Shown here one piece after another: positions 5,008 through 58,433 of a stretch of DNA of 64,000 nucleotides. The notes beneath the pieces are model-generated. The model was not told the origin of the DNA, searched no databases, and saw nothing but the letters and a program-made list of their open reading frames with translations. Numbering within the stretch: the stretch's first letter is position 1; each line of letters starts with the position of its first letter. The stretch covers positions 864,001 to 928,000 of the forward strand of contig CBDCVR010000015.1 of assembly GCA_965223155.1 (NCBI GenBank). The letters run 5' to 3'. Origin of the DNA: Candidatus Multivoradales bacterium (GTDB lineage Bacteria > Acidobacteriota > Thermoanaerobaculia > Multivoradales > JAHEKO01). Made by a program: the position numbers and the translations under genes.

Positions 5008-6652
5008 GCAATCGCTTTCTTGGGCCGGCAGTCTATACTTTTCGGGTTTGGGAGCCTTTCGCCGCCGCGCCGATTCGAACCCGCCAAGCTCCGCGTCGAT
5101 CCGCAGTCCGGAACCGGTCGTGGAAACCGCCCACGGCAGGCTCCGGGGCGTGGCGCTCGAGACCGGAGTGTTCCGCTTCTCCGGCATTCCTTTCGCGGCG
5201 CCGCCTGTCGGGGCCCTGCGCTTCGCCGACCCCCAGCCACCCGAGCCGTGGCCCGGCATCCGCCCCGCCGGTGAGGTCGGCCCGGCGGCGCCCCAGCTCG
5301 CGGTCGGCGCCATGGGGCCCATCGGACGCTTGTCACGCCTGGTTCGCGGCCCCATGGCCGAGGACTGCCTGACCCTCAATGTCTGGACGCCGGGCCTCGG
5401 CGGCGCTTCGCGGCCGGTCCTGGTCTGGTTCCATGGTGGCGCGTTTGTCTTGGGCGCGGGCTCGACGTTTCTCTACGATGCCGCCCATCTGGCGGCAAGC
5501 GGAGACGTCGTGGTGGTCTCGGTCAACTACCGTCTGGGGGCCCTCGGCTTCCTGGACCTCACGCGCCTCACCCGCAGGCGAGACGCACCCTCCAATCTGG
5601 GGCTGAAGGATCAGATCGCCGCTTTGCATTGGGTGCGGGACACGATCGCCGCCTTCGGAGGCGCCGCCGACCAGGTCACGGTCTTCGGAGAATCGGCCGG
5701 AGCGATGAGCGTGGGCACCCTGCTGGCGGCCGCACCCCATCTGTTTCGCCGCGCGATCCTCCAGAGCGGAGCCGCCGCCAACGTTTCGTCTCCCGCCGAG
5801 GCGGCCTACGTCGCGGCCCAGTTCCTGGACGCTCTGGAGGTCGATCCGGATCGGTTCGAAAGGCTGCGCGAGATCGACATCGAGACGATCTTGAAGGCTC
5901 AAAGATCGGTCTTGTTCGGAGAATGGCGCCGCATGGGCCGGCTGCCATGGCAGCCGAGCGTCGACGGCACGACGGTGCCGAACGCGCCGGTCGCAGACAT
6001 CGCCCGCGGGCGCGCCGGCAACATCGACATCCTCCTCGGCACCAACCTGGACGAGTGGAAGCTCTTTACCGCCGGCGCGGTCATGCTGCGGGGCATGAGC
6101 CATCGGGATCTGGAGACAAGGATCGCCTGGAGCCTCCGGCTCTGGGGCATCCGACACGCGCAGGCGGCCGAGGTTCGGAACTACTACCTAGACCTTGTCG
6201 CCCGGCGCAAGCGCCGGCCGACGCCCTACGAGGCCTGGGTGGCGTTTCGAAGCGACCAGTTCTTTCGGATGCCGGCCCGCGATCTCGCCAATCGCCAGAG
6301 CCGGCACACCGGCGCCGTGTTTCTGTACCGCTTCGATCAGCCGATACCCGCGTTTCGCCACTCACTGGGCGCTTGCCACGCAGCCGAGGTTCCCTTGGTC
6401 TTCGGCACCCATCGCACCGCCCTGCTCCGGCCGCTCTATCTCGGCAGCCGCCGCATCGACAGCCTCTCCCGGCTGATGCAATCCGCCTGGCTCTCCTTCG
6501 CCCGTACCGGGCGGCCCGAAGACGACGAGATCGGTCCTTGGCCCGAATTCGAGCCGGAGGGCGACTCCACCCGGGCGCTGGGCTCTCCAGAAACCGTACT
6601 CCGGGAGGTCGACGAGACCAGCCTCGACCTCTGGCTGCGGCCGGCCGGGTAG
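5006..6652 (+). CDS. Carboxylesterase type B (para-nitrobenzyl esterase-like); start uncertain (ATG 5006 or TTG 5048)
   Basis: GIPFAAPPVGALRF, EDCLTLNVW, HGGAF, GESAG nucleophile motif, GACHAAEV. Confidence 0.9.
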   Translation: MQSLSWAGSLYFSGLGAFRRRADSNPPSSASIRSPEPVVETAHGRLRGVALETGVFRFSGIPFAAPPVGALRFADPQPPEPWPGIRPAGEVGPAAPQLAVGAMGPIGRLSRLVRGPMAEDCLTLNVWTPGLGGASRPVLVWFHGGAFVLGAGSTFLYDAAHLAASGDVVVVSVNYRLGALGFLDLTRLTRRRDAPSNLGLKDQIAALHWVRDTIAAFGGAADQVTVFGESAGAMSVGTLLAAAPHLFRRAILQSGAAANVSSPAEAAYVAAQFLDALEVDPDRFERLREIDIETILKAQRSVLFGEWRRMGRLPWQPSVDGTTVPNAPVADIARGRAGNIDILLGTNLDEWKLFTAGAVMLRGMSHRDLETRIAWSLRLWGIRHAQAAEVRNYYLDLVARRKRRPTPYEAWVAFRSDQFFRMPARDLANRQSRHTGAVFLYRFDQPIPAFRHSLGACHAAEVPLVFGTHRTALLRPLYLGSRRIDSLSRLMQSAWLSFARTGRPEDDEIGPWPEFEPEGDSTRALGSPETVLREVDETSLDLWLRPAG

Positions 6653-6726
6653 GGCGGTGGGCCCGGTCCGAGCCGGCCGGAGCCGGTCGAAAGCAGGCCC
6701 GACCAAGTTTGATCAGGACCGAGGCC

Positions 6727-6771
6727 TTGACAGAGGAGCCCTTCCAGAGTACTCTTTTTGAGTACTCAAAA
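6727..6771 (+). promoter_or_regulatory. Sigma70 promoter with overlapping palindromic operator candidates
   Basis: TTGACA (6727-6732), 17-nt spacer, TACTCT (6750-6755); palindromes AGAGTACTCT (6746-6755) and TTTTGAGTACTCAAAA (6756-6771). Confidence 0.8.
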
Positions 6772-6803
6772 TTCCTTGCGCCGCTTACTCCGGTTAGACC
6801 ACC

Positions 6804-8699
6804 ATGCCAAATTCAACCTCGAACCGATTTCTTCTCGCTAGCGTTTTTCTGCTTGGGCTCGCAACCGCGCCGGCACCCGCGCACATCGTGCCCCCGGAGG
6901 CGCTTCATCCGGTTGCCGAGAGCTACCGCCGTCTCGAGTTCTTTCTGAATCTGAATCCAGTGCCCTGGGACCAGGTCGCGGCCGATTCGCGGCGGATCGC
7001 CGGCGAGCTCGATCGGCTCGGCACCGAGGATCCGTTTGCCGAGGCCCTCGAGGACCGGCTCCGCGCTCTCGAGTCCGAGCGCGGATCCGGGGCCTGGGAC
7101 GCCGGCGCCCGGCGCCAAGCCGGGGCCGCGATTCTGGAAGAAGCGACCCGAGCAGTCGCCCGCACGGTCGTGGCCGAGTTGGATGCCGCCCGAACGCATC
7201 TCGCCGAGTACTCCCGCGCGGCGCGCCATCTCGAAACCGCCCGACGACTCTGGCAGGCGTTCGAGCCCGCGGTGGCGGCGGCGCACCCGGACGAGTTCGT
7301 CCGCCTGGGCGAGTGCTGGCTCGAGCTGGCCTCGGCCCTGGGACATCCGGGACTCGGAGGAATCGGAGGGGTCGCCCCCGACGAGGCCACGTTCGCCTTG
7401 GAAACGGCCGAGGTCTCCGAGTACCTGGCCGCGCACTTCACCGACACGGTCCGTATCCCGCAAATGGGCCGCCTGGCGCCCCTGCCCGGTGTTGAGCTTG
7501 CCGCCTATTCCCCGGGCCGCATGCTGGCGCCCGGCTTCAATCTCAACAAACAGATTCCCCGGCCAAGGCAGATCCTGAACATGGCGACCCGCGGCGTTGA
7601 CGAGCGCGACACGCCGCTGGTGGCCTTGGGAGACATGGCTTTCGACAGCGCCTTGATCTTCGGCGAGCCGGCGCGTTCGCTGGCGATCACCTGCAACACC
7701 TGCCACAACAAGGGCGTAACCAATCCGCAGTTCTTTATCCCTGGTCTGTCCCGGCGCCCCGGCGGCATGGACGTCTCGAACGGTTTCTTCGCCGCTCACG
7801 CCAACAACGGACACTTCGATCCGCTCGACATCCCCGATTTGCGGGGCCTGCGTTTTACCGCGCCCTATGGCCGCAACGGCCGCTTCGACTCGTTGCGCGA
7901 GTTCACCCGCAATGTGATCGTCAACGAGTTCTCCGGCCCCGATCCCGATCCGCTGCTGCTCGACGGCTTGGTGGCGTACATGCTCGAGTTCGACTTCCTG
8001 CCGAACCCCTACCTGGAGGCCGACGGCTCGCTCACGGCTGAGGCCCCGGAGGCGGCGAAGCGCGGCGAGGTTCTCTTCTTGCGCGAGTACCCGGGCCTGG
8101 GCGGGCGTTCCTGCGCCTCGTGCCACGTCCCCTCCGACCACTTCCTGGATCGCAAGCGCCACGACCTCGGCTCGGTCGCGGGCGCCGAAAGCCATTCGAA
8201 GGACCGGGCTCTGGACACGCCGACGCTGCTGAGCAGCACGTATACGGCCCCGTATTTCCATGATGGACGCTTCGAGACCCTGGCCGAGGTCGTCGACTGG
8301 TTCGACGCCCGCTTCGAGCTCGGCTTGAGCGAGGAGCAAGCCTCCGATCTGACCGCCTATCTCGAAACCATCGGCGACGGCGTCGAGGCTTATGAAGACA
8401 CGATTCATACCCTTGAGTCCGAGCTCGAAGAGTTCGACTTCTTTCTTTCCACCTACGAGTTCCTGAAGACCCGCGGCAACGACGTCTTGATCGACGTCAC
8501 CTTCGGCACCATCGCGTTCGAGATCCGAGCCCACAAGTGGGACGTTCAGGATCCGGAGAACCTGCCGCTGCTGGATCGGCTGGCGGCGATGATGGACGAA
8601 GCCCGAACCGCCTTCGCCGCCGGCGACGTCGGGACCGCCGACACCGTGGTGACCGAGTACCGCCGACTCTACAGGAGCAACGCGGAGATCTTGCGATGA
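6804..8699 (+). CDS. Secreted di-heme cytochrome c peroxidase/MauG-superfamily protein with extra helical N- and C-terminal domains
   Basis: Signal peptide; two CxxCH motifs (CNTCH, CASCH); RGEVLF; TPTL...TAPYFHDGRFETLAEVV. Confidence 0.85.
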   Translation: MPNSTSNRFLLASVFLLGLATAPAPAHIVPPEALHPVAESYRRLEFFLNLNPVPWDQVAADSRRIAGELDRLGTEDPFAEALEDRLRALESERGSGAWDAGARRQAGAAILEEATRAVARTVVAELDAARTHLAEYSRAARHLETARRLWQAFEPAVAAAHPDEFVRLGECWLELASALGHPGLGGIGGVAPDEATFALETAEVSEYLAAHFTDTVRIPQMGRLAPLPGVELAAYSPGRMLAPGFNLNKQIPRPRQILNMATRGVDERDTPLVALGDMAFDSALIFGEPARSLAITCNTCHNKGVTNPQFFIPGLSRRPGGMDVSNGFFAAHANNGHFDPLDIPDLRGLRFTAPYGRNGRFDSLREFTRNVIVNEFSGPDPDPLLLDGLVAYMLEFDFLPNPYLEADGSLTAEAPEAAKRGEVLFLREYPGLGGRSCASCHVPSDHFLDRKRHDLGSVAGAESHSKDRALDTPTLLSSTYTAPYFHDGRFETLAEVVDWFDARFELGLSEEQASDLTAYLETIGDGVEAYEDTIHTLESELEEFDFFLSTYEFLKTRGNDVLIDVTFGTIAFEIRAHKWDVQDPENLPLLDRLAAMMDEARTAFAAGDVGTADTVVTEYRRLYRSNAEILR

Positions 8700-15525: not shown

Positions 15526-16340
15526 GGGCCTGTTAACACTTAAGGGTTAGGATCGTATAAGCTCCGTGCATGGAAATCACGGAGAAACAGTACGAGCGCA
15601 TTGCAGATTGCTTTCCAGTGCAGCGAGGCAACGTCAGCGTGCCGAATGTTCAAGTGCTGAACGCAATTCTCTACGTTGCCGAACACGGCTGCAAGTGGCG
15701 CGGGCTCCCGAAACGATTCGGGAATTGGCACACGATCTACACTCGCATGAACCGTTGGTCCAAGAACGGCGTGTTGGATCGGGTGTTCGCGCGGCTCCAA
15801 GAGGAGCAGATCGTGCGAGTCAAGATCGAGGCCGTGTCACTTGACAGCACGATCGTGCGGGTTCACCCCGACGGTACGGGAGCATTAAAAAAAACGGCCC
15901 CCAGGCCATTGGAAAGTCCCGCGGTGGATGGACCACCAAGATTCATATGGTTGCCGCAGATGCTCGAACAGCCATCACCTTCTGCCTCTCGCCCGGCCAA
16001 GCGCACGATGCGCCCGTCGGCCGATGCTTGCTGAAAGACCTGGGCCGACCGAAGCAACCGATCGCGCTTGTCATGGACCGAGCCTACGAAGGCAACGAAA
16101 CCCGACAACTCGCTCTGAATCTCGGCTATACCCCTGTCGTGCCACCCTTGAGCACTCGCCTTCGGCCCTGGGCCTACGACCGGCTCCTCTACAAACGTCG
16201 CAACGAGATCGAACGGCTCTTTCGCCGGCTCAAAGGCTACCGGCGCATCTTTTCCAGATTCGAGAAGCTCGACGTCATGTACATCGCCTTCATCCATTTC
16301 GCCCTCATCGCTGATGCACTGCGACAATGTTAACACGCCC
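15526..16340 (+). mobile_element. IS5-family insertion sequence (IS427-like group), about 815 bp
   Basis: Terminal inverted repeats GGGCCTGTTAACA / TGTTAACACGCCC; two-ORF transposase inside; flanks CCAG and CTAG. Confidence 0.92.
15570..16333 (+). CDS. IS5-family transposase expressed by programmed -1 frameshift
   Basis: OrfA has GCKWRGLP..FGNWHTIYTR and DSTIVRVH; A8 run at 15887-15894; the -1 frame continues SRGGWTTKIH, DRAY, YKRRNEIERLFRRLK. Confidence 0.92.
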
Positions 16341-18891: not shown

Positions 18892-21800
18892 CTACTCCGG
18901 CTGCCAGGCCGGTATCCGGCCCGGCGTCCAGGGTGCGCCCGCGGCTTCCATCTCGGCCTCGAGCTCGCCGAGATCCTCCTCGACCAATGCCCTGAGCGCG
19001 CCAAGAACCGGCTCGAACGCCTCGGCGGCGATGTCGTAGGCGCGCCGGTGGGTGGCGGTGGGCGCCGAGCTCGACGTCCAGCTGCCGCCCACGGCACGGC
19101 CGATCCGGGCCGAGATCGAAGGCGGCGTGGGCTCGAAGCGGCGGGAGACGGTCCGGTCTCCCTGAAGCGAGACCTTGAGGTCCTCGAGGCGGGTTTCGAG
19201 ATCTTCGAGCCGTGCCACCCAAGCCTCGCTTTCGGTCGGCGTGTCGAGAGCGGCGCGGCGCAGGTGCTGGATCCGGGTTTCGGTCTCTCCGACCACGCGG
19301 TTGGCGCCCTGGACCGCCCGCTGCAAGCGGGCGAGCTTCTTCTGGAAGGCGAGGAGAGCGGCCTTGTCGTCGGCCGGCAACGAGACCGTACCGGTCGGCA
19401 CCGTCTCGAACGTCTCCGGCCCGGCGAGCTCGGTCAGCTCGTTGTTCTCGAACTTGGCGAGACTCACCGAGTAGGTCCCGGGAACCACCATCGGTCCCAT
19501 GGGATCGCTCGAGAAGGCGTTCCGCGCTCGCGGTGTGAGGCGAGCGGGGTCGTGCGGCGGATACCGAAGATCCCAGCTCACCCGATGGAGGCCCTTCTCG
19601 GCCGGACCGGTCAGGCGGCGAACGACGTGTCCGTCGGAGTCCCGCACGGTCAGGACGATCGCTGGATCCTGGGCGCGATCTTCGGCCCGGAGCTCTTCCC
19701 AGCTCGGGTAGCCGACGTCCTCGCCGGCTTCCTTCTCGGCTTCCTCGGACTGGCGCTTCTTCTTCAGGCTCTGGAACCCGTCCTCGAGGTAGTAGGTGAA
19801 GACCGCTCCGTGCGGGGGATTTTCGGCCGTGTAGAACGAGTCCCCCTGGAAGGCGACGTTGTTGTAGCCGAGCTCGAAGCTCTTCATGTACATCCGGGTG
19901 CGCCGCGGAGCGAACAGGATCGCCTCGGCTTCGAGCGCTTCTTCGCTCATCCGCCGGAGCGGCGAGTAGTCGTCGAGGATGAAAAAGCCGCGCCCGAAGG
20001 TGCCGACGACCAAGTCGTTTTCGCGAGCCTGGATCTCGAGGTCGCGCACGTTGATGGTCGGCATGCCGGCGAGCTTCACCCAGCTCGTGCCGCCATTGAC
20101 CGAGACGTAGGCCGCCCACTCGGTGCCGGCAAACAGGAGATCGGCCGTCTCGTGATCCTGGGCGACAGTGTAGACCGTGCCCTTGTCGGGCAGATCGCCG
20201 GCGATCGACGTCCAACTGCGGCCGCGGTCGGTTGACTTCAGAAGGTACGGCTTGAAGTCACCCGACTTGTGGTTGTCGATCGCCGCGAAGACCGTGTCAG
20301 GGTCGTGCTTCGAAGCTTCGAGGTCGCTCACATACGCCATCGCCGGAACACCAGGAAACGAGTCCTCGCGTCTCCAGTTGGCGCCGCCATCTTCCGAGAT
20401 CTGAATCAAGCCGTCATCGGTGCCGACGTAAAGCAGCCCTTCGATCAGTGGTGATTCCGAGACCGACACGATCGTGCCGAAGAACGAGGTCGATCGGTTC
20501 TTCGACACGGTGTCCACACCCCAGACCTTCCCCATGACCTCGAGCCGGTTCCGGTCCAGGTTCCGGGTCAGATCGCCGGAGACCGGCCGCCAGGAGTCAC
20601 CCCGGTCGTCCGAGCGATACAGGCGCTGCGAGGCGAAGTAGAGGCGAGTCGAGGCGTGCGGACTGATCGCGAACGCCGAATCCCAATTCCAACGCGGCGG
20701 ATCCTCTCCGGGCTCGGTCTGGGGCTTGATGTCGGTTCGCTCCCAGCTCTTCTTGTCGAGCCGGACCAGGCCGCCGTACTGCCACTGGGAGTAGACGATG
20801 TCGGGGTTGTCGGGATCGACCCCCGGGTCGAAGCCGTCGCCGCCCACGGTCACGTACCAGTCCCGGTTGGTGATGCCGTGCTCGGAGGTGGTCCGGGAAG
20901 GACCGCCCAAGGTGGAATTGTCTTGGGTGCCGCCATAGACGTTGTAGAAGGGCAGCGCGTTATCGACCGCGATCTTGTAAAACTGCGTGATCGGCAAATT
21001 GGCCTTGAAATCCCAGGTCGCGCCCCGGTCCCAGGTCTCATAGACGCCGCCGTCGCAGCCCGAGATCATGTGCCGGGTGTCGTCCGGATCGATCCAGTGG
21101 GCGTGGCTGTCGACGTGCTTGGCAAACTCCGGGACCTTCTCGAAGCTCTTGCCGCCGTTCTCGGACACATGGAGCCAGGTGTCCATCGAGTAGATCCGGT
21201 CCGGGTTCGTCGGATCGACGAAGATCTCGTTGTAGTACTGGGGCGAGCCCGACACGTAGTCCGAGCGTCTCTCCCAGTTGAGCCCACCGTCGGTCGAGCG
21301 GAAGAAACCACTCTTCTTGCCCAGCGACTCGACGATGGCGTAGACGGTATCCGGTGCCGACGGCGCTACCGCCAGCCCGATCTTGCCCTTGTCCTCCTTC
21401 GGCAGACCGTTTTCGATCTTCGACCAATTGGCACCGCCGTCCGTCGTCTTGTAGACGGTCGATTCCGGACCGCCGTTGATGAGCGTCCAGGTCCGCCGGC
21501 GCCGCTGGTAGGAGGACGCGTACAAGACGTCCGGGGCGCGCGGGTCCATCCAGACTTCGTTGACCCCGGTGTGCTCGCCGATCTCGAGCACTCGCTGCCA
21601 GGTCTCGCCGCCGTCGGTCGTCTTGTAGACGCCGCGCTCACCGCCGGCCCGCCAGAGCGGGCCCTGAGCGGCGACGTAGACCGTCGCCGAATCGCGCGGA
21701 TCCACCACGATCCGCCCGATGTGTTCCGACTCGCCCAGGCCCACGTTCTTCCAGTTCTTGCCGGCGTCCTGGGACTTGTAGACCCCATCGCCGTAGGAGA

Positions 21801-22203
21801 CCGAGCGCTGCGAGTTGTTCTCGCCGGTACCGACCCAGATCACGTCCGGGTTGTTGGGGTCCAGGGTGATGCACCCGATCGAAAACGATCCCTCGCCGTC
21901 GAAGATAGGCGTCCAGGTGGTGCCCGCGTTGATCGTCTTCCACACCCCGCCGGAAGCCGCGGTCACGTACCAGATGCTCGAGTCGTCCGGATGCACGACG
22001 AGATCCGAGATCCGGCCCGAGGCGATCGCGGGACCGATCTCGCGCAGCGGCAACCCGGCCAGGAGCTCGGCCGAGACCCGAAGCTCGGAGCCATCCGGGC
22101 TCGCGGCCGAGGCCTTGGCTTTGCCCCGCTTGGCGGCGGCCGGTTCGGCAGCCCCGGCGAGAACGGTCCAGGTGACAAGAATTCCGACCAAAGTCCGCGT
22201 CAT
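18892..22203 (-). CDS. Large secreted VPS10/sortilin-like BNR-repeat beta-propeller protein ('glycosyl hydrolase')
   Basis: REIGPA..SGRI, many SxDGGxxW Asp-boxes, GGTQDN, GTDDG, TFGRGF. Confidence 0.9.
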
Positions 22204-22379
22204 CGCTTACCTCTTTCTCCTCAGGAACTTGAAGCCGGGGGACCGTCCGCCGTCGGGAAGACCGGAGCCCGCGCTCCGCTGGTCGAGGAAGGCCGCAAGG
22301 CTATCACCACGCGCTCCGCGCGCCGGCCGCGGATCCGTACCGCTCGCCCGAGGCTTCTTGCCCCTATACTTCGAGCATC

Positions 22380-22658
22380 TTGCGCCCGGCCCGCCCCAAC
22401 CCCGAAGTGCTCTTTCGACACGTGAACGACGAGACCATCCTCGTGCACCTCGACTCGGGAGCAATCTTCTCGCTCAACGAGACCGGATCGCGGTACTGGC
22501 AGCTCCTCGAGTCGGGACTGGCGCCCGAGGCGCTCCTGGACCGAATGGCCGAGGAGTTCGACGTGGCCCGCTCTCAGCTCGCCAGGGAGATCGCCGAGCT
22601 GCAGACAAGCCTCCTGGAGGCCGGGTTGGTCGAAGTCGGCGCTCCTGCGGTTGACTAG
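22380..22658 (+). CDS. Stand-alone RiPP recognition element (PqqD family; lasso B1-like)
   Basis: DETILVHLDSGAIFSLNETGSRYWQLL...EEFDV...LLEAGLV; TATACT at 22365-22370 upstream. Confidence 0.9.
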   Translation: MRPARPNPEVLFRHVNDETILVHLDSGAIFSLNETGSRYWQLLESGLAPEALLDRMAEEFDVARSQLAREIAELQTSLLEAGLVEVGAPAVD

Positions 22659-24555
22659 GCCGCCTGAGATCGACATGGCCGCCTGGGCTCTCAGCTGGCT
22701 ACCCGAGATCGAGGCCGAGCCCCGGCTCTACGGCGATCCTCCGGGACCGGACTCCTCCGTCAGCCTTTCTCGCTCGGACGCCGGCGACTTTTCGTTATTC
22801 GACGGCTACCTCCTCGACCCGGGCAAGCTTTCTGCCCGGTCCGACCCAACGGCTTCGAACGCCGAGATCCTCGCCCGCGCCGATGGCGACGGGACGCCCA
22901 GGATCCTCGACCGGCTGCGCGGGAGCTTCGTCTGGATCGTCTGGAACGCCCAGCGCCGTCGGCTGACGGTAGTCCGGGACCTGGCCGGGCTCACCCCCTG
23001 CTTCTTCACTTGGGATGGGAGCGCGCTTCTCGTCGCGCGCCGACCCGACGCGCTCCTGAGGCTCGGCCGTGACCTGGGGCGACTCGACTTTGCCGTCAAC
23101 CGGGAGGCCGTCGCCGAGTACCTGGCGTCGTCCTATTCGGAGGCGCTCGCCGACGAGACCTTCATCAGCAAGGTCAGGCGACTGCGGCCGGCGCACCTGC
23201 TGCGGCTCGACCGGACCGGCCTGGAGATCGATCGCTACTGGGCGCCGCTGCCGGGGGGATTCGCTTGGGCCACGGCGGACGAGGCCGCAACCTTCCCCCA
23301 GGTGCTCGAAGCCGCAGTGGCTCGCTGCCTCGACGCGGGGGCGGACTCGCTGGCCCTGAGCGGCGGCTTCGATTCGGTGAGCCTGGCGGTGCTGGCCGCC
23401 CGGTTGCGCGGTAGCCGGGCGCCACTCGACGCCGTCTCGCTTCACTTCGACGGCGGTGACTGCGACGAGAGCGCCACCCAGACGGCGGTCGCCCGCGCCC
23501 TCGGCATGCCCCAGACCATCCGATCGCTCGCCCAGAGTCTTGGAGACCGCAATCCGGTCGAGGCCGCCCTGGCTCTCTCCGGCGAGAGCCCGGTGCCGGT
23601 GCTGAGCGTATGGCAAGCGTTCTACACCGGTCTCATGGCGAGCATGCGCCCCAGGAAGAGCGGCCTGATGCTGGGAACCGGCGGCGACGAACTCATGGCC
23701 GTCGATGGAAAATATGGCGCGGACTGTGTGCTCGCGGCCTCGCCGCTCCGCCTCTGGCGGTTCTACGACTCCTGGCGGCGGGCTTCTTCGTTCGGACCGC
23801 TATTTGTTGCCCGCGAGATCTTCTGGCGCCACGGCCTGCGGGCAGCGGGACGCGAGATCCTGCTGCGGGCTCTTGACGCGGGGGTCCCGGAGCTCCAAGC
23901 GCGGATCCTCCGCCGGCGCTGGCGCCGGCGAATCGAGGCCAATACCTGGCTCACCCGCGACGCCGGGCTCCTGGACCGGCTCGAACGCCGACGCTCCGGT
24001 GGTACCGACCTCCGCCAAGTCCGGGAGCCAAGCCTGTACATTCGGTACCTGCGCGCCTTGTTTGACTCGCCGGCCCTGATGATGGAGCTCGATCAGGGAG
24101 CTGCCTGGGCCCAGGCCCAGGGTATTGCCACATTCCTGCCATTTTTCGATCGAGACGTCATCGAGCTGAGCCTCCGCCTGACTCCCGAGCAACTCCTGGC
24201 GGGCGGCGAATCCAAAGCACTCTTGCGGAATCTGGTTCGTGGAGGACTCCCCCAGGTCGAGCTCCCTGCCCGCAAAGTCGGCTTCGGTATGATGGTTCAT
24301 GACGTTCTCCGTAAGAGTGGCCGCGAAATCTGGCAGAATTGGCGTTCGACGCTTCGGCTCGGCGAGATTGGCCTGATCCAGCCGGATCGTGGACAGCGAG
24401 CCCTCGATGGCTATTTTGCTCATCGCAACAACGATTGGTTCTTGGCGTGGAAGATTCTGAGCGCGGAAGCCTGGCTGAGGCACCATCGGTCGCGGCCGAC
24501 GAGACCACCCCGGCCTCTCTCCGAAAACCCTGGCGAAAGTCCTGGAGGCCCATGA
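22651..24555 (+). CDS. Asparagine-synthetase-like lasso cyclase (macrolactam synthetase)
   Basis: Degenerate glutamine amidotransferase-like N-domain with no Cys1; PP-loop LSGGFDS; DES; GTGGDEL; PFFDRDV; C-terminal EAWLR. The start may be ATG 22675. Confidence 0.88.
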   Translation: MTRPPEIDMAAWALSWLPEIEAEPRLYGDPPGPDSSVSLSRSDAGDFSLFDGYLLDPGKLSARSDPTASNAEILARADGDGTPRILDRLRGSFVWIVWNAQRRRLTVVRDLAGLTPCFFTWDGSALLVARRPDALLRLGRDLGRLDFAVNREAVAEYLASSYSEALADETFISKVRRLRPAHLLRLDRTGLEIDRYWAPLPGGFAWATADEAATFPQVLEAAVARCLDAGADSLALSGGFDSVSLAVLAARLRGSRAPLDAVSLHFDGGDCDESATQTAVARALGMPQTIRSLAQSLGDRNPVEAALALSGESPVPVLSVWQAFYTGLMASMRPRKSGLMLGTGGDELMAVDGKYGADCVLAASPLRLWRFYDSWRRASSFGPLFVAREIFWRHGLRAAGREILLRALDAGVPELQARILRRRWRRRIEANTWLTRDAGLLDRLERRRSGGTDLRQVREPSLYIRYLRALFDSPALMMELDQGAAWAQAQGIATFLPFFDRDVIELSLRLTPEQLLAGGESKALLRNLVRGGLPQVELPARKVGFGMMVHDVLRKSGREIWQNWRSTLRLGEIGLIQPDRGQRALDGYFAHRNNDWFLAWKILSAEAWLRHHRSRPTRPPRPLSENPGESPGGP

Positions 24556-24662
24556 AGCTGAGCCACCTGGGCTCGATCGGCGATCTCGTTCAGGGAAGCG
24601 GCAAGACCGGCACGGTTCCCGACGGCGATCCCCAATCTGTTCGCAAGACCGGCGTCGGCTAG
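24552..24662 (+). CDS. Putative RiPP (lasso-like) precursor peptide MKLSHLGSIGDLVQGSGKTGTVPDGDPQSVRKTGVG; may start further upstream (GTG 24447)
   Basis: ATGA overlap with the cyclase stop; GGAGG at 24544-24548; in-frame WRPMKLSHLGSIGDLVQG resembles the lasso leader (Y/W)xxPxLxxxG motif; Gly-rich core containing Asp. Confidence 0.8.
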   Translation: MKLSHLGSIGDLVQGSGKTGTVPDGDPQSVRKTGVG

Positions 24663-25534
24663 GCCGTTCGGTCGTTCTCGAAAACCGCCCGCAGCCGCCG
24701 CACGGTCCGCCGGAACCGCTCGGGCCCGGACGGATACGCAAGACGCGCGACCTCGACCGAGCCGACCAGGTGTAAGCAGGAGGCAGCCATTCGCCGGGTT
24801 GCCTCACCGTCGGCCGGGTCGAAGCGCCAGCAGTGCTTGAGAAGCTCCGGAAAAGCGATTGGCGCGGGAAGGGGTTCAAGGACGGAACCCTCCAGCTCGG
24901 CTGCGCCGTCTCGACGCTCGAGCAGGACGACGCGCCGGATCGGAAGGAATCGGGGCGGCCGCCGCGCATCCGCCAGCCATTCTGAGGGCGGCTCCGAAAA
25001 CCCCTCCGGATCGAAGCCCAGGAGCTCAAAGGCGTCGGGAAGCAGCCTGAGCCGGAACGGCACGAGCCAACCCCGGCAGGATTCACCGTCCGGCTCGAAG
25101 GGCACGAGGTCGTCCGCGGCCACCTGGGCTCCGGAGAGTCCCAGGGCCGCGGCCAGCGTCGACTTGCCGGTGCCCGAGTCTCCGCAAAGCACCGCTACGC
25201 CGCCGGCCGCGACCACGGCGCTGGCATGGAGCGAGGTCAGCCCGCGAGCCTCGAGGATCAGTGGCAGCACCTGGCGCCGGTACACCTCGGCGATCTCGTC
25301 GCCGGCCGCGTCGCCGGCCACCTCGGCAACCGCTGCGGCCGAGGTCTCGGTCCCGAATCGAAAGAGGCCCACGGCATCGAGGCGCAAGAATCGCTCGGCC
25401 CCCAGAGAGCCGGCGGTACCGATCTGGACGCCCCGCGGATCGCACCAGGGCCAGGAGCGACCCCCGCGCGACGTCCAGTCCGCCCCGGGATCGCCCACCG
25501 TCGCGACCCGCTCGATCTTCAACTCCGGTAGCAT
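24659..25534 (-). CDS. HPr-kinase-like P-loop kinase (lasso peptide kinase type)
   Basis: LHASAV, Walker A GDSGTGKST, ADDL; adjacent to the RRE, cyclase and precursor genes. Confidence 0.85.
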   Translation of the reverse strand: MLPELKIERVATVGDPGADWTSRGGRSWPWCDPRGVQIGTAGSLGAERFLRLDAVGLFRFGTETSAAAVAEVAGDAAGDEIAEVYRRQVLPLILEARGLTSLHASAVVAAGGVAVLCGDSGTGKSTLAAALGLSGAQVAADDLVPFEPDGESCRGWLVPFRLRLLPDAFELLGFDPEGFSEPPSEWLADARRPPRFLPIRRVVLLERRDGAAELEGSVLEPLPAPIAFPELLKHCWRFDPADGEATRRMAASCLHLVGSVEVARLAYPSGPERFRRTVRRLRAVFENDRTA

Positions 25535-25672
25535 GGCGCCTCGACCGAATCTTAGCGGCCGGCACCAAGGCCTGTCCCCGACGCCTCGAGCCGCCCCGGC
25601 GGGCTTGTCCAGCCCGATCGAGACGCCGGCCGGTACCGGAAAAAACTGCTGCCCTCGGAGGACCCTAGAACG

Positions 25673-28600
25673 ATGACCCGACCCCTCGGCACCGCCCGGA
25701 CCAATCGTTGCCCCGTCTTGTCCCGGATCGCTCTTGCCACCGTCGTCTTGACCCTCCTGTCCCTCGTTTTCTCGACACCCGCCGAAGCCCGTAAGGGCAA
25801 GAAGAAGGCGGCCGCCGAGTCCGCTGAGGCCCCCGAGTCCGATACCGCGCTATCGTCGGCGACCTTCTCCGGCCTCGAGTTTCGCTCGATCGGCCCGGCT
25901 CTCATGTCGGGCCGCATCGCCGACATTGCCGTTCATCCCGACGACCAGTCGGTCTGGTACGTGGCGGTGGGGAGCGGCAACTTGTGGAAGACTACGAACG
26001 CTGGCACTACCTGGACGCCCATCTTCGACGACCAGGGCTCGTACTCGATTGGTGACGTGACCCTGGATCCGTCCAACCCCGAGATCGTTTGGGTCGGCAC
26101 CGGCGAGAACGTCGGAGGGCGTCACGTGGGCTACGGTGACGGCGTGTACAAGAGCCTCGATGGGGGCGCAAGCTGGGAAAACGTCGGCCTCGAGAGCTCG
26201 GAACACATCGGCAACATCGTCGTCGATCCGAACGACGGCAATGTCGTCTACGTCGCATCTCAAGGCCCACTGTGGTCTGCCGGAGGCGACCGCGGTCTCT
26301 TCAAGACCACCGACGGCGGCGCGACCTGGGAGAAGATCCTCGGCGGCGGCGAGTACACGGGCGTCAACGAGGTGATGATGGACCCGCGGGACTCGATGGT
26401 TCTCTACGCCTCGACCCATCAGCGCTTTCGGAACGTCGCCGCCCTCCTCAACGGCGGCCCCGAATCGGGACTCCACAAGTCCACCGACGGCGGCACGACT
26501 TGGCGTGAGCTCTCGAACGGCATCCCCGAAGACGACAAAGGCAAGATCGGCATCGCGATCTCGCCCATCAACCCGGACGTTGTCTACGCGACGGTCGAGA
26601 CCCCACAGCGGGAGATCGCCGTCTACCGTTCCGCGAACGCCGGCGCGAGCTGGGAGAAGGGCGCCGATGTCGGCTACTCGGGCACCGGCCCGCACTACTA
26701 CCAGGAGATCTTCGCCAGTCCCCACAAGTTCGACCGCATCTACCACATGAACCCGCGTATCTCGGTCTCGGACGACGGCGGTACGAGCTGGCGGCCGCTG
26801 GGCGAGGAGTACAAGCACGGCGACAGCCATGCGATGGCCTTCGATCCGAACGACCCGGACTACCTTCTAGTCGGAAGCGACGGTGGGCTCTACGAGAGCT
26901 TCGACCAGGCCAAGAGCTGGAAGTTCCTCGCCAACCTGCCGGTGACCCAGTTCTACAAGGTGGCGGTGGACTACGACGAGCCCTTCTACCACGTGGTCGG
27001 CGGCACCCAGGACAACAACACGCAGTACGGGCCTTCGCGCACCGACAACGTGCACGGCATCCGCAACTCCGACTGGGAGATCACGCTTTTCGGCGACGGC
27101 CACCAGCCGGCGATCGACCCCACCGACCCGAACATCGTCTACTCCGAGTGGCAGGAAGGGAACCTGACCCGCTGGGACCGAGCCACCGGCGAGATGATCT
27201 ACATCCAGCCGCAACCCGAAGCCGACGAGGAATGGGACCGCTTCAACTGGGACTCGCCCATTCTGATCAGCGCCCACGACCCGGCCCGCCTCTACTTCGC
27301 GAGCCAGCGAGTCTGGCGCAGCGACAACCGCGGCGATTCTTGGCGGCCGGTTTCCGGAGACCTCTCGAAGGGCGTTGATCGGCTGACCCAGCCGATGATG
27401 GGCAGAGTGTGGCAGTGGGAGTCGAACTGGGACGTCTGGGCGATGTCGAAATACAGCACGATCACGTCTCTAGGGGAATCACCCAAGGACGAGAACATCC
27501 TCTACGCCGGCACCGATGACGGCCTCGTCCAGATCTCCGAGGACGGCGGCCAGACCTGGCGCAAGATCGACTCGCTGCCCGGCGTCCCCGATGGTTTCTT
27601 CGTCAACGACATCAAGGCCGACCTCCACGACGCGGACACCGCCTACGTCGTGGTTGACGACCACAAGTCAGGCGACTTCTCGCCCTACGTCCTGAAATCG
27701 ACCAATCGAGGCCGCTCCTGGACCTCGATCGCGAGCGATCTTCCCGAGCGCCACGTCGTGTGGCGTCTGGTGCAAGATCACGAGAACCCCAATCTCCTCT
27801 TCGTCGGCACCGAATTCGGGGTCTTCTTCACGGTCGACGGCGGCGGCAAGTGGGTCAAGCTTTCGGCCGGGATGCCCAACATCCCGGTGCGGGACCTGGC
27901 CATCCAGAAGCGGGAGAACGACTTGATCGCGGCGACCTTCGGCCGCGGCTTCTACGTCCTCGACGACTACAGCGCTCTGCGCTCGATCTCGGAGGAAATG
28001 CTCGAGTCGTCCGACGTCGAGCTCTTCGAGCCGCGTAAGGCCTGGTGGTACATGGAGCGCCGTGCCCTGGGCGGCTCCAAGAAGGCCAGCCAGGGCGAGG
28101 CCTTCTACGTCGCCGACAACCCGCCTTTCGGCGCCACCTTCACTTACTACCTGAAGGATTCCCTCGAGACCGCCAAGGAGGCGCGCAAGAAGCAAGAGGG
28201 CGAGGTCGCCAAGGAGGGCGGAGACACGCCCTACCCCGGATGGGACGCACTCCGCGAAGAGGATCTCGAGGAGGCTCCTGCGATTCTCCTAACGGTCACC
28301 AACGGAGCCGGCGAGGTGGTTCGCCGCCTGACCGGGCCGGCCAAGGCCGGCGTCCACCGCGTGACCTGGGACCTACGGTATCCGAGTTCGAGCGCCTGGA
28401 GCGAGGACTGGAACGACGAGAACGCAAGCGGTTTCCTGGCCGAGCCCGGAACCTACACAGTTTCGCTGGCCCAGCGCTCGGGGACCGTCGTGACCGATCT
28501 CGACCAGAGCCAGTCCTTCGAGGTCGTACCGCTTCGCGAGCGAGGCCTTCCGGGCGCGAGCCCGGCCGAGGCCGTGGCCTTCCTGCGCGAGCTCGACGCC

Positions 28601-29032
28601 TTCAACCTCCAGGCCGAGGCCGCGAACTCCGCGCTCGCGGAGGCCGAAACGAAGCTCGACGCCATCAGGCAGGCGCTCATGCGGTCGACTCTGGCGCACA
28701 GCCAGCTCGATGACAGCGCCCGCGGTCTGTGGCGGAAGGTCAAGGACCTCCAGCTCTGGCTCGAAGGCAGCGAACGCCGGGACAACATGGGTGATCCGGG
28801 ACCGGTCTCGATCGAGCGCCGGCTCGGCGTCGCCTTCATGGGCAACATGCTGTCGACCTACGGACCGACACCGACTCATACGCGCCAGTTCGAAATCGCC
28901 AAGGAGGAGTTCGCCCGACTCTCTTCGGAGCTCAACCAACTTCTCGAAACCGACCTACCCGCTCTCGAGACTCAGCTCGACGCGGCGGGCGTTCCGTGGA
29001 CTCCGGGCCGCGGCATTGGCGGAGGATCCTGA
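25673..29032 (+). CDS. Large secreted VPS10/sortilin-like BNR-repeat beta-propeller protein, paralog of 18892..22203
   Basis: RSIGPALMSGRIAD, Asp-boxes, GGTQDN, RFNWDSP, TFGRGF; same C-terminus PWTPGR. Confidence 0.9.
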   Translation: MTRPLGTARTNRCPVLSRIALATVVLTLLSLVFSTPAEARKGKKKAAAESAEAPESDTALSSATFSGLEFRSIGPALMSGRIADIAVHPDDQSVWYVAVGSGNLWKTTNAGTTWTPIFDDQGSYSIGDVTLDPSNPEIVWVGTGENVGGRHVGYGDGVYKSLDGGASWENVGLESSEHIGNIVVDPNDGNVVYVASQGPLWSAGGDRGLFKTTDGGATWEKILGGGEYTGVNEVMMDPRDSMVLYASTHQRFRNVAALLNGGPESGLHKSTDGGTTWRELSNGIPEDDKGKIGIAISPINPDVVYATVETPQREIAVYRSANAGASWEKGADVGYSGTGPHYYQEIFASPHKFDRIYHMNPRISVSDDGGTSWRPLGEEYKHGDSHAMAFDPNDPDYLLVGSDGGLYESFDQAKSWKFLANLPVTQFYKVAVDYDEPFYHVVGGTQDNNTQYGPSRTDNVHGIRNSDWEITLFGDGHQPAIDPTDPNIVYSEWQEGNLTRWDRATGEMIYIQPQPEADEEWDRFNWDSPILISAHDPARLYFASQRVWRSDNRGDSWRPVSGDLSKGVDRLTQPMMGRVWQWESNWDVWAMSKYSTITSLGESPKDENILYAGTDDGLVQISEDGGQTWRKIDSLPGVPDGFFVNDIKADLHDADTAYVVVDDHKSGDFSPYVLKSTNRGRSWTSIASDLPERHVVWRLVQDHENPNLLFVGTEFGVFFTVDGGGKWVKLSAGMPNIPVRDLAIQKRENDLIAATFGRGFYVLDDYSALRSISEEMLESSDVELFEPRKAWWYMERRALGGSKKASQGEAFYVADNPPFGATFTYYLKDSLETAKEARKKQEGEVAKEGGDTPYPGWDALREEDLEEAPAILLTVTNGAGEVVRRLTGPAKAGVHRVTWDLRYPSSSAWSEDWNDENASGFLAEPGTYTVSLAQRSGTVVTDLDQSQSFEVVPLRERGLPGASPAEAVAFLRELDAFNLQAEAANSALAEAETKLDAIRQALMRSTLAHSQLDDSARGLWRKVKDLQLWLEGSERRDNMGDPGPVSIERRLGVAFMGNMLSTYGPTPTHTRQFEIAKEEFARLSSELNQLLETDLPALETQLDAAGVPWTPGRGIGGGS

Positions 29033-53752: not shown

Positions 53753-55624
53753 TCAGCCGTCCAAGTACCCGAGTGCTTCCAAGAGCTGCCGGTCGCGCCG
53801 GCTAGGAGTACCCGGCTGCCCGGCATCCTCAGCGGTCCCGTCGGCCTTGACCCGCCTTTCCGCGAGCCAAGCTTCCAGCAACCGGTCGAAGTCGGCCGCC
53901 AGATCCGGCCGGGTCTCCACCAGGTTGACCGTCTGTTCCGGATCGCGGGCGAGGTCGTGCAGGTGTCCGCCCGCTGCCTGACCGGCCGGTCCGTTCGACG
54001 CCACATAGAGGTACTTGCGGCTCCGAACCATCGTGCCCATTCCGTTCATGTGCTCGGCAAAGACGAGCCGGCGGCCCGATTGGGGTGCCGTGGTCCACGT
54101 GGCCAAATCCCTGCTGTCCGTCGGCGGCCCGTCTACCCCGGTCGCCGCCAGCACGGTTGCGAAGACGTCCAGCGTCTGCGCCAAGCCCTCGAGACGCCGG
54201 CCCGCCCGCACTCGGCCGGGCCAGCGAACCAGCAGCGGAACGTGGGTCGTCGTGTCCCAGAGCCCAGCGTGGTTGAACAGGAGCCCATGCTCGGTCAGGT
54301 TCTCGCCATGGTCGGACACCACGACGAGCAAGGTGTCCTGGAGCATTCGCCAGCTTCGGAGAAACCCGACGAGCCGGTCGATCTGCCGGTCGAGATAGGC
54401 GACCTCACCGGAATAGAGCGCCTCGTGGCCGCCTAGGCCCGGCAGCCGAAAAGACACCGGCCCGGGTTCCCGAAACGGCTTCCAGGGTGCCGCGGGCGAA
54501 AGACCCGAGGCGTGCTCGTGGGCAAACCCGAGGGCGTAGTTCTCGGGCGGCGTGTGGGGAACGTGTGGATCGTAGAGGTGAAGCCACAAGAACCAGGGCC
54601 TATCTTGCTCGGCCAGCCACTCCAGGGCCAGGTCGGTCGACAGCTCGGCGCTCCGCAGCCGCTCCGGAACCAGGTAGTCCCCAAACCCCTGGTCGAGACC
54701 CGAGAATCGCCCGGCCAGGTGGCGCGCCGAGACGATGGCGTGAGTTGCGTACCCGGCCCGGCCCAGAAGCTCGGCCAGGGTCTCGTGGCGTCCGGCGAGC
54801 GGCGTTTCCAGATCGTAGATGCCGTGGTTCTTGCCGTAGAAGCCGGTCAAGATCGAGGCAAAGCTCGGGTTGGTGCCATTGAAGGTTGAATAGGCCCGGA
54901 GCCAGACGTCGCTCTCGCGACCAAGCTCGTCCAGAGCCGGGGTGACGCTGGGCTCGGCTCCATAGGCGCCCAGGGCGTCCGCCCTCAAGGCGTCGAGGCT
55001 CACCAGCAGGACGTTCGGAGCCGTGCCTTTGCGGCCTCGTAAGGCGCGGCCGAGCGGCCCGGGCTTGCCGAGCGCGGACCGAAAGTAGACCCCGGGGCTC
55101 CCCCACAGCGATTGCACCCTCCGGACCGGGCAATCCGCCACCGGTCCTTTCTTGGGCACTGACAGCGCCAACTGCATCGCGCGATCGGAGTAGGCGCCGA
55201 GATCCACGATTCGGTCCGCGGACGCAAACCAGGAGCTCCAGGTCACGGTTTGCTCGAACAGGCTGGTCCACTCGCCGCCGGTCTCCCGCGCCTCGACCCG
55301 GTAGGACACCGGGCACGAGGCGGTCCCGGGTACCAGCGGCCGGAAGCTCAAGTAGGGCTCGGATCCCAGCTCGAGCTCGAATTCGAGACGCTTGCCTTCG
55401 GGGATCCGCAACACGCGCAGATCTCCGGATGGAGCCTTGGTTCGCCGGCGCGGCGAGCCGTCCAGCTTGGCGCCGACCAGAGGCGCCAGCGAGCGCGCCC
55501 GCGGCGCGGAGGTCTCGCGCCACAGATCGATGCGAACCCAGCCTCCGGGCCCGGCCTCCGGGGCGCACGAAAGAGCCGGCAGGGTCAGCAAAACGGCGGC
55601 GCCGGCGACGAGGCCTTGCCTCAT
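53753..55624 (-). CDS. Sulfatase-like (alkaline phosphatase superfamily) lipoprotein
   Basis: LDALRAD, TNPSFASILTG, HLYDPH, SDHGE, HVPL, LEALGY. Confidence 0.87.
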   Translation of the reverse strand: MRQGLVAGAAVLLTLPALSCAPEAGPGGWVRIDLWRETSAPRARSLAPLVGAKLDGSPRRRTKAPSGDLRVLRIPEGKRLEFELELGSEPYLSFRPLVPGTASCPVSYRVEARETGGEWTSLFEQTVTWSSWFASADRIVDLGAYSDRAMQLALSVPKKGPVADCPVRRVQSLWGSPGVYFRSALGKPGPLGRALRGRKGTAPNVLLVSLDALRADALGAYGAEPSVTPALDELGRESDVWLRAYSTFNGTNPSFASILTGFYGKNHGIYDLETPLAGRHETLAELLGRAGYATHAIVSARHLAGRFSGLDQGFGDYLVPERLRSAELSTDLALEWLAEQDRPWFLWLHLYDPHVPHTPPENYALGFAHEHASGLSPAAPWKPFREPGPVSFRLPGLGGHEALYSGEVAYLDRQIDRLVGFLRSWRMLQDTLLVVVSDHGENLTEHGLLFNHAGLWDTTTHVPLLVRWPGRVRAGRRLEGLAQTLDVFATVLAATGVDGPPTDSRDLATWTTAPQSGRRLVFAEHMNGMGTMVRSRKYLYVASNGPAGQAAGGHLHDLARDPEQTVNLVETRPDLAADFDRLLEAWLAERRVKADGTAEDAGQPGTPSRRDRQLLEALGYLDG

Positions 55625-57024: not shown

Positions 57025-57036
57025 TATGATAGCGGC

Positions 57037-58433
57037 GTGAACGGCTCGCTTCGGTGGCTTCGATCGTTCTTCCCCTCGATCGGCCTCGGCCTCTGGATCT
57101 TGCTTGCTGGCTGCGGAGGGAAGACGCCGGTTGACCGGATCGTCCTAGTCACCATCGACACTCTCCGAGCCGACCATCTGGGTAGCTACGGCTATCCCGT
57201 GCAGGTTTCTCCCTTCCTGGACCGCTTGGCTCGGGAGGGCATCCTCTTTGAGAACGCGATCAGTTCATCCTCGCATACCTCGCCGAGCCACGCCTCGATC
57301 ATGACGGGTGTCTATCCGAAGCAACACGGTGTGCTTCAGAATCTGGGCCGGCTTCCCGAGGACAGCTTCACCGTGGCCCGATATCTCCAGGATGCAGGCT
57401 TCGAGACAGCCGGCTTCGCAGCAGCCCCCTTTCTGCTCGGTATGGAGGCCGGCTTCGAACACTTCGCCGCGGCGGAGCGGGCCCAAGGCTGGAGTGAGGC
57501 ATCGACGATCGTCGAGCGGGCAACGCACTGGCTCGAGCAACTGCCTCGCGACAGTCGCTATTTCCTCTGGATCCACCTGTGGGAGCCGCATGAATGGCCG
57601 CGAACCCCCGCCGGGGACCAGGATGGACTCGCCCGCCAAGCGGAGGGGCTTAGCGACGAGGCGTTCCTCGAGTTTCTGCGAACCCAGCACGGCACCGACC
57701 CGTCTTGGCAGACCGAGGTCCGAACCCTCGCAGCGATCGACCGCTACGATGCCTTGATCGCGGAAGCCGACCGCGCCTTGGAGAGTCTCTACTCCGAGCT
57801 AGAACGCAAAGGTCACCTCGATCGCTCGCTGTGGATCGTTACCGCCGATCACGGCGAGGGCCTGGGCAGCCACGGACATGGCGGGCACGGCGAGCATCTC
57901 TATCAGGAACAGATTCACGTTCCTCTGATCTTCCACTGGGGTGATCGGCGGCACTCGGGCCGGCGAATCGATACGCTCATACGACACATCGATCTTTTTC
58001 CTACCGTCGCTGCCCTCGCCGGCCTTCCGCTCGACGGTCAAGGCTTCAGAGGGAAGGCCGGTCTTTCGTGCCGCTTTTCGAGCGTCGCTTCCTGGCCGGA
58101 ACGACGGAGATGGACGAGCGATTCGCCGTCAGCCAACGCCGGCCCGCAGACGCCAAGAGAATTGCTAGGGGCTGGCATCCGGGGGACGTGCTGTCGATCC
58201 AGAATCATCGGGCCAAGCTGATTCTCCGAACCGAGGGTCCGGACGAGTTCTACCTGCTCGACACCGACCCTCTGGAAGGGGACGATCGGGCCGAGCAGCC
58301 CTCGCGAGAGTCCTTGCAGCTCCGGCGCAAGCTTCTGGCCTTGAATGCCCGCATGCTGAGCGAAGCTCCTGAGCCGGCCTATCTGGACGGTTCCTTCCGA
58401 CCGCTGCTCCGTTCGCTGGGCTACATCCAGTAG
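57037..58433 (+). pseudogene. Sulfatase-like lipoprotein interrupted by a frameshift near 58050 (real mutation or sequencing error)
   Basis: IDTLRADHL, TSPSHASIMTG, ADHGE in the first frame; EGRSFVPLF...LRSLGYIQ in the second frame. Confidence 0.78.

Follow-up and report, generated by a model that had tools for sequence, protein, structure and literature searches.

Whether a lasso-like peptide cassette without a recognizable leader peptidase encodes a new class of RiPP (a peptide that is synthesized by ribosomes and modified post-translationally), or a reduced copy of a known pathway, is the question raised by a locus in contig CBDCVR010000015.1 of a Candidatus Multivoradales bacterium. The stretch analysed here (64 kb, positions 864,001 to 928,000 of the contig) is called the window, and positions below are window coordinates. 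An examination of the letters alone, the sequence-only reading, had claimed four features in it, namely a PqqD-type RiPP recognition element (RRE), an asparagine-synthetase-like enzyme, a short precursor and a convergent HprK-like gene, and had proposed that the B2 leader peptidase either acts in trans or is dispensed with in a distinct RiPP class. All four genes are real and were found where that reading had put them (Table 1). We consider it most likely, with a confidence that stays a little short of even, that the locus is a trimmed member of the kinase-tailored lasso-peptide family (B1, C, A, K), locally without B2 and nucleotidyltransferase; that its pathway still runs on a B2 whose gene lies in another part of the genome is an equally tentative view. 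A new class of peptide natural product is not supported.

The cassette and its nearest relatives

The three enzyme open reading frames (ORFs) of the cassette are intact and their catalytic motifs are kept (SGGxDS, the Lys of K-x-x-L-R and the H/K/D/D of the kinase). The ATG of the small ORF overlaps the cyclase stop (ATGA) and is preceded by GGAGG 3 nt 5' of it, while the minus-strand kinase ORF ends 4 nt inside the end of the small ORF, the two stops overlapping. A discrete PqqD-type RRE, the form expected of a lasso B1 protein, is present; it scored 39.5 bits with the lasso PqqD chaperone model NF033530, under the cut-off of 70. The cyclase homologue is an AsnB-like macrolactam synthetase with an intact PP-loop and without the N-terminal Cys, as expected of a lasso C protein. 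The SGGFDS and GTGGDE motifs of the sequence-only reading were located. With no Cys before residue 117, the enzyme lacks an N-terminal nucleophile, which confirms the claimed lack of the catalytic Cys1. A search of the window with Rfam found zero families.

Taken on its own, the cyclase is ambiguous between a lasso cyclase and an asparagine synthase, its NCBIfam scores being 93 bits with the lasso cyclase model NF033535 (cut-off 525) and 93.4 bits with the asparagine synthase model TIGR01536 (cut-off 267.1). Its best match in the PDB was a hydroxyamidotransferase (1.9e-8). When 72,556 plasmids were searched with the cyclase by tblastn, 42 records matched with an identity of about 25%, and the seven plasmid ORFs inspected among them were all of the AsnB type with an N-terminal Cys (TIGR01536 366-557 bits for the six that were scanned). 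The plasmid matches were rejected as lasso comparators because those inspected were true Cys-bearing AsnBs. The glutamine-dependent AsnB belongs to the same fold family, and its PP-loop SGGxDS, PF-x-D motif and K-x-x-L-R lysine align with the window cyclase; the alignment showed that the ATP-side residues are retained and the glutamine-side motifs lost in the window enzyme. The latter differs from AsnB, however, in having no Cys nucleophile, in falling under the TIGR01536 cut-off and in its position in a separate clade. A tree of three cyclases and seven true AsnBs grouped the window cyclase with those of two loci described next, L008 and L009, in one clade with 100/100 support, the terminal branch being 0.96 for the window against 0.67 for L008.

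These relatives came from scans of genome contigs. With the whole cyclase as the query, 21 stretches were matched and none was confirmed; a second scan with a 48-residue cyclase stretch from the PP-loop matched at least 586, two loci being confirmed among the matches listed: L008 (JBGPTW010000040.1), in a Methylomirabilia metagenome-assembled genome (MAG), and L009 (CAVVIK010000006.1), in a Thermoleophilaceae MAG. The window cyclase is 39.5% identical to that of L008 over 600 aa and 31% to that of L009 over 551 aa (local tblastn), with scores of 375 and 198 bits, respectively, against 40-78 bits for the plasmid loci. The RRE is 45% identical to that of L008 and 36% to that of L009. In both relatives the RRE, cyclase, small ORF and kinase follow each other in this order on a single strand. 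Both also carry a B2 (PF13471 2.5e-19 in L008 and 1.4e-19 in L009; NF033537 79.4 and 65 bits, cut-off 33), located directly 5' of the RRE in L008 and directly 3' of the kinase in L009, and an NTP_transf_5 nucleotidyltransferase (PF14907, 3e-52 and 2.8e-25, respectively). The relatives thus share with the window the core gene order, homologous precursors and a distance of 19 residues from a Lys to the C-terminus, but B2 and NTP_transf_5 are present in them, their kinase is co-directional, and their leader has a Shine-Dalgarno site and a start of its own 5' of the anchor. Membership of the locus in the lasso subfamily is supported by the cyclase, RRE and kinase being closest to L008 and L009 (among the matches listed) and from the 100/100 clade.

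Two irregularities were observed in the relatives, either of which may be real or an assembly error. The typical B2 N-terminus of L008 (8339-9312) is in another frame than the PF13471 domain, and in L009 (10845-11152) the conserved cyclase C-terminus, whose end comes after E-A-W, and the listed ORF occupy different frames. Both loci sit among polysaccharide-synthesis genes (L008 4102-8388 and 16907-19302; L009 3630-8970 and 14382-19973), which include Wzm/Wzt-type ABC-2 transporters, GT2 glycosyltransferases, Wzy_C, Polysacc_synt and a UDP-GlcNAc 2-epimerase. A reminiscent setting, in capsule loci, is described in PMC13381572 for paeninodin-like and linear polyphosphorylated peptide (LPP) clusters of Bacilli.

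The absence of B2 from the window was established by three methods and bears out the corresponding claim of the sequence-only reading. PF13471 matched none of the 52 likely genes and none of the 141 stop-to-stop segments spanning all unassigned window DNA, and tblastn of the window with the B2 proteins of L008 and L009 gave best E-values of 0.16 and 0.69, respectively. A custom hidden Markov model (HMM) made from eight B2 proteins of the fetched loci recovered a ninth, untrained B2 at 7e-17, and its best E-value on all six-frame window segments of at least 40 aa was 0.4. Likewise, PF14907 matched none of the 193 window ORFs and segments, and tblastn with the relatives' NTP_transf_5 proteins gave a best E-value of 0.07. 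Pfam recognized only one ABC system among the ORFs and segments, an importer of the phosphonate type (about 8.5-11.2 kb), and no lasso isopeptidase-like gene was seen in the 64 kb, as the sequence-only reading had stated for a dedicated ABC exporter and an isopeptidase. The flanking DUF885 and BNR proteins were considered as substitute peptidases and rejected, being missing from the relatives' loci; the N-terminus of the DUF885 protein resembles a signal peptide when judged by eye.

Clusters of the paeninodin/pseudomycoidin type consist of B1, B2, C and A with an HprK-like kinase (PadeK/PsmK) and a nucleotidyltransferase (PsmN). The window resembles them in its discrete PqqD RRE, Cys-less AsnB-like cyclase and HprK-like kinase with His-Lys-Asp-Asp. 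It differs from them in that no B2 and no NTP_transf_5 nucleotidyltransferase (the latter a mark of the pseudomycoidin subtype), both kept by L008 and L009, are present in 64 kb, and in a precursor ending in G-V-G rather than Ser, an anchor of the form [YW]-x-P and a Lys rather than a Thr two residues before the predicted core. The subfamily as a whole differs from the paeninodin type, its precursors ending in G-x-G without a C-terminal Ser. It was seen in three hosts (among the matches listed), namely the high-GC window bacterium and the Methylomirabilia and Thermoleophilaceae MAGs, the latter two being neither Bacillota nor Pseudomonadota, and no description of it was found in a non-exhaustive literature search of main texts. 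For the cyclase subfamily, the Atlas indicates a cluster of 95 members (639 aa), most frequent in Acidobacteriota.

The kinase was assigned from weak family scores (TIGR04352 25.2 bits, cut-off 200; PF07475 17.2 bits, cut-off 33.3), a structure model and homology. The AlphaFold2 model, made from a three-sequence alignment (pLDDT 79), had HprK/P (3tqf, 1kkl) and PEPCK as top PDB matches, and the nearest Atlas clusters are 'putative HPr kinase/phosphorylase' (0.98). The window kinase is 31% identical to that of L008 and 33% to that of L009, which are 43% identical to each other. All three kinases keep His103, Lys124, Asp141 and Asp142, which form the His-Lys-Asp-Asp motif reported for lasso kinases in PMC9266682. 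In the same source, the C-terminal Ser phospho-acceptor of kinase-type precursors is called 'extremely conserved'; the cassette has the His-Lys-Asp-Asp of paeninodin-type clusters without this Ser. The pairing of a kinase and a nucleotidyltransferase with precursors that end in G-x-G without a C-terminal Ser puts the kinase target there in question. The window kinase gave nothing at E-values up to 1 in a tblastn search of the plasmids, and a literature search on HPr-rel-A/ScmC-type kinases returned unrelated uses of 'SCMC' only.

LPP clusters, as described in PMC13381572, combine an RRE with an HprK-like kinase, an NTP transferase and an SpI-type leader peptidase but have no macrolactam cyclase, and their kinase phosphorylates an internal Ser (core S3) rather than a C-terminal one. 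The pairing of RRE and HprK-like kinase is common to them and the window. The window does not fit the LPP definition, however, as it has a cyclase and no signal-peptidase family was present in the Pfam matches of its 193 ORFs and segments.

A wider survey was made with the L009 kinase as the query against the plasmids. Nine records were found and all were inspected; a cyclase is present in eight of them (that of L016 was checked by tblastn), L019 being the record without one. In seven of these eight cyclase-bearing loci a B2 is encoded in the 7 kb fetched on either side (the call in L016 was made by the custom HMM and that in L018, where the gene is cut at the locus end, by RefSeq annotation only), and B2 is hence nearby in 9 of 10 loci with cyclase and kinase when L008 and L009 are counted. 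Conservation of the absence of B2 across cyclase homologues, for which the sequence-only reading had allowed, was therefore not seen.

The exception is plasmid pTM1 of Tistrella mobilis KA081020-065 (L010), with a cyclase, an HPr kinase, a PqqD protein and a 48-aa ORF, where there was neither room nor signal for a B2 within 7 kb of the cassette. Another plasmid of this strain, pTM2, does encode a 'lasso peptide biosynthesis B2 protein', which stands alone with unrelated genes around it. The pTM1 cassette is like that of the window in combining cyclase, kinase, RRE and peptide without a nearby B2, but it differs in sequence (26-32% identity and 40-58 bits for cyclase and kinase, no match for the RRE), in gene order, in its leader motif W-x-x-P-x-V and in that a B2 gene is known in the strain, on a second replicon. 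The window and T. mobilis are natural cases of a lasso core cassette apart from its leader peptidase and could be used to test a trans B2.

Some of the plasmid loci had features of their own. The pTM1 cassette (L010 8461-12674) is followed by genes for an extracytoplasmic function (ECF) sigma factor, a FecR-type anti-sigma protein and a TonB-dependent receptor, neighbours that hint at an uptake or signalling role of the peptide. In L019 (Methylobacterium tardum pMt-1, 6413-7564), the HprK-like match falls in a protein of 383 aa that is annotated as a PqqD chaperone and may be an RRE-kinase fusion; an NTP-transferase gene adjoins it, and the locus, with no cyclase and no B2, is of the cyclase-less type. 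L017, on the archaeal plasmid pHALXA01 of Halopiger xanaduensis, has the full kinase-type set of PqqD, B2, asnB-like gene, HprK-like ORF and nucleotidyltransferase.

The precursor and its leader

Comparison of the window with its two relatives showed that homologous small ORFs occupy the same place, between cyclase and kinase, in all three. The L008 ORF (from ATG 11169) and the L009 ORF (11149-11316) both align with the window peptide, and tblastn of the L009 peptide against the window matched 24522-24647 (E-value 1.5e-6). The small ORF is more than a chance reading frame on this sequence comparison, with no Pfam family found at E-values up to 10 on either the 36-aa ORF or its 107-aa extension. 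The three peptides share an aromatic-x-Pro motif (W-R-P in the window, W-E-P and Y-E-P in the others), G-x-[VI]-x-D-[LV]-[LV]-x-G, D-x-D and a terminal G-x-G (G-V-G in the window, G-I-G in L008, G-Q-G in L009; none ends in Ser). Counted from the C-terminus, residue 19 is a conserved Lys in each of them.

A lasso core starts with Gly, Ala, Ser or Cys and has an Asp or Glu at position 7-9. The residues two places after the conserved Lys are G, S and S in the three peptides, and an Asp is found at core position 7, 7 and 9, respectively. A core starting two residues after the Lys would thus fit the lasso rules, with Lys replacing the usual Thr at position -2; cleavage directly after the Lys is the alternative.

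The DNA 5' of the ATG appears to encode a leader that lies outside the ORF as called. The last 25 codons of the cyclase (24478-24552) run across this leader-coding DNA, and homology to the L009 leader extends 10 codons 5' of the ATG with a fixed-register score of 22, which is reached by 7 of the 111,516 10-mers of the six-frame window. For the 75 nt 5' of the ATG, the G+C content at third codon positions (GC3) is 0.76 when they are read in the frame of the peptide and 0.56 in that of the cyclase; the value of the whole cyclase gene is 0.79. With the GC3 contrast and the upstream homology, this DNA looks like leader sequence that is now read through by the cyclase. In the relatives, the start that precedes the anchor has a GGAGG-type site 7 nt (L008) or 11 nt (L009, ATG 11161) before it. 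The spacer from the E-A-W motif of the cyclase to the E-T-P of the leader measures 26 nt in the window and is longer in L009 (43 nt) and L008 (79 nt), and the 26-nt spacer holds neither a cyclase stop, a Shine-Dalgarno site nor a start codon. No canonical start (ATG, GTG or TTG) is present in the small ORF frame between 24448 and 24551. A promoter-like consensus match, the only one in 21900-25900 where 0.1 was expected from shuffles, is a weak lead (Table 1).

A complex predicted for the RRE and the 36-aa peptide scored 0.16 against a mark of 0.34; as the prediction was made without controls, this speaks neither for nor against binding.

Table 1. Features of the cassette, in window coordinates
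Feature	Position	Strand	Basis or remark
B1/RRE, PqqD family, 92 aa	22380-22658	+	PF05402 E-value 6e-15, exceeds gathering score
Cys-less asparagine-synthetase-like cyclase homologue, 634 aa	22651-24555	+	PF00733 E-value 2.2e-28; partial GATase match
PP-loop SGGFDS of the cyclase (ATP pyrophosphatase motif)	23359-23376	+	aligns with SGGxDS of 7 of 7 AsnBs
GTGGDE motif of the cyclase	23674-23691	+	read from the sequence
Promoter-like site TGGACA-16-TATTTT	24390-24417	+	inside the cyclase 3' end, just 5' of TTG 24435 and GTG 24447
Leader-coding stretch in the small ORF frame, 5' of the ATG	24477-24551	+	holds E-T-T-P and R-K-S-W-R-P
Small precursor ORF, 36 codons, MKLSHLGSIGDLVQGSGKTGTVPDGDPQSVRKTGVG	24552-24662	+	called from ATG
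Predicted ring segment G20-D26 (G-T-V-P-D-G-D)	24609-24629	+	putative link of Gly20 amine to Asp26 side chain
HprK-like kinase, 291 aa, convergent	24659-25534	-	weak family matches, model and homology

A running pathway or a remnant

A pathway that is still working with a B2 from elsewhere is suggested by the intact enzymes and core, by the ATGA coupling and by the Tistrella precedent. In such a pathway the RRE would bind the leader, as is known from the family, and the B2 peptidase would cut after Lys18-Thr19. The cyclase would adenylate the side chain of Asp26 and join it to the freed amine of Gly20, and the product would be a 17-residue core with a 7-residue ring and a 10-residue tail, on which the kinase would phosphorylate a Ser or Thr other than a C-terminal Ser. 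What the sequences show is the identity of the genes, their homology to lasso clusters that contain B2, the lack of B2 and the nucleotidyltransferase in the 64 kb and the conservation of the small ORF; the point of cleavage, the ring, a B2 acting in trans and the kinase target are inferred from what is known of the family.

Several observations weigh against this pathway. The trans B2 partner is hypothetical, the scope of the B2 search being the 64-kb window, and close relatives of the cassette numbered only two among the matches listed. The W-R-P anchor, and the E-T-T-P further 5', are in frame but upstream of ATG 24552, and PMC13381572 describes a YxxP/WxxP motif as essential to the binding of the RRE. 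The in-frame upstream starts (GTG 24447, TTG 24435 and TTG 24339) have no Shine-Dalgarno site, and any of them would make the ORF overlap the cyclase gene by at least 109 nt; a peptide started at GTG 24447 would have 71 aa and contain the anchor. The kinase, finally, is inverted with respect to those of L008 and L009 and is more diverged than theirs. The copy looks reduced, with B2 and the nucleotidyltransferase missing, the kinase inverted and the 5' end of the precursor compromised. The inversion, the missing nucleotidyltransferase, the leader that appears truncated at its 5' end and the lack of a C-terminal Ser go beyond what the sequence-only reading had noted.

These same features could mean that the locus is a decaying remnant, which after the loss of B2 and the nucleotidyltransferase and the inversion of the kinase makes no product, its ORFs being intact because the loss is recent. 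We regard this as a serious possibility, although a less probable one than a pathway served in trans. Two genes that are adjacent to the core in both relatives are missing from the window; the flipped kinase, whose stop overlaps that of the precursor, leaves no room for a terminator; the spacer is shorter than in either relative and contains no cyclase stop, Shine-Dalgarno site or start codon; the GC3 values agree with a cyclase gene that runs on through what was once leader DNA; and the end branch of the window cyclase is the longer one. Yet ORFs of 634, 291 and 92 codons persist without a frameshift or stop and with every catalytic motif, the core retains all family-invariant residues and its length after the conserved Lys, and the ATGA coupling is intact. 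No loss can be dated with relatives as distant as these. A RiPP that does not need B2, with the cyclase acting on the uncut peptide (Lys18 to Asp24 or Asp26, or carboxylate amidation) before phosphorylation by the kinase, is improbable. In its favour are the lack of B2 from 64 kb, the second B2-less cassette in Tistrella and the presence of Lys18 and the D-x-D pair in all three peptides. PMC6993621 also reports that the pseudomycoidin lasso cyclase can work without leader and peptidase, and PMC13381572 that HprK-like kinases act in the cyclase-less LPP family as well. The Lys and D-x-D, however, are also conserved in the relatives that carry B2 and need not signal a new linkage; the window proteins fall inside a B2-containing clade; B2 is close by in nine of the ten loci and encoded in trans in the tenth; and the pseudomycoidin result was obtained with a leaderless core, whereas the window ORF starts 19 residues before the predicted core. 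Still more doubtful is the specific form in which a working cassette makes its peptide from ATG 24552 without the anchor and leaves it uncut, with a Lys18-Asp24/Asp26 ring or a carboxylate change and the kinase acting at a non-C-terminal site. If true, a B2-independent cassette would be a lasso-derived pathway that shed leader proteolysis.

An identity outside the RiPPs, as a divergent amidotransferase of the asparagine-synthetase family beside a PqqD-like gene and a P-loop kinase, is strongly disfavoured and the least probable of all. The near-equal NCBIfam scores, both far under their cut-offs, the Cys-bearing AsnBs among the inspected plasmid matches and the best PDB match would fit it. Against it stand the missing N-terminal Cys, the translational coupling of the cyclase to the RRE and the conserved small ORF, and homologues at 31-40% identity in lasso B2 clusters. 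What speaks against a distinct class in general is that L008 and L009 carry a bona fide B2 and that B2 is nearby in 9 of the 10 loci overall. The class put forward in the sequence-only reading, with a cyclase acting without leader removal, is thus unsupported; B2 in most orthologous clusters, together with a canonical N-terminal macrolactam product, was the outcome it had named as speaking against this class, and the first half of this was seen, B2 being present in both of the closest relatives among the matches listed. Of its two options, the trans B2 gained a precedent in Tistrella while the distinct class lost ground to the B2-containing relatives. A B2 missing from a single window does not amount to evidence for a new class of RiPP, since the nearest relatives have retained theirs next to an identical core set, and the value of the result is mainly corrective.

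Flanking genes

The cassette is flanked by two 1,100-aa BNR/sortilin-VPS10-type paralogues that are 51% identical and point away from it (18892-22203, minus strand; 25673-29032, plus strand). At their 5' ends (21817-22044 and 25883-26110) they make up an inverted repeat of 228 nt with 72% complementarity. Among inverted repeats near the kinase that might mark an inversion none was convincing, this pair being the sole long one; recombination between the paralogues could flip the intervening segment. Two overlapping frames (DUF4096 then DDE_Tnp_1; 15561-16333, plus strand), 6 kb 5' of the cassette, belong to an IS4/IS5-type transposase.

Further away, a topoisomerase VI subunit A/Spo11-type gene (61948-63162, minus strand; PF21180 2e-59, PF04406, PF20768) has a ThrE exporter gene and a major facilitator superfamily (MFS) gene as neighbours, no subunit B being recognized beside it. 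The region 53753-60696 holds three sulfatase-family genes, a 467-aa ORF without a family match (55621-57024, minus strand) and a sulfotransferase gene (58421-59605, minus strand). Sulfotransferases accompany some kinase-type lasso clusters (L011 and L018), and that of the window lies 33 kb from the cassette.

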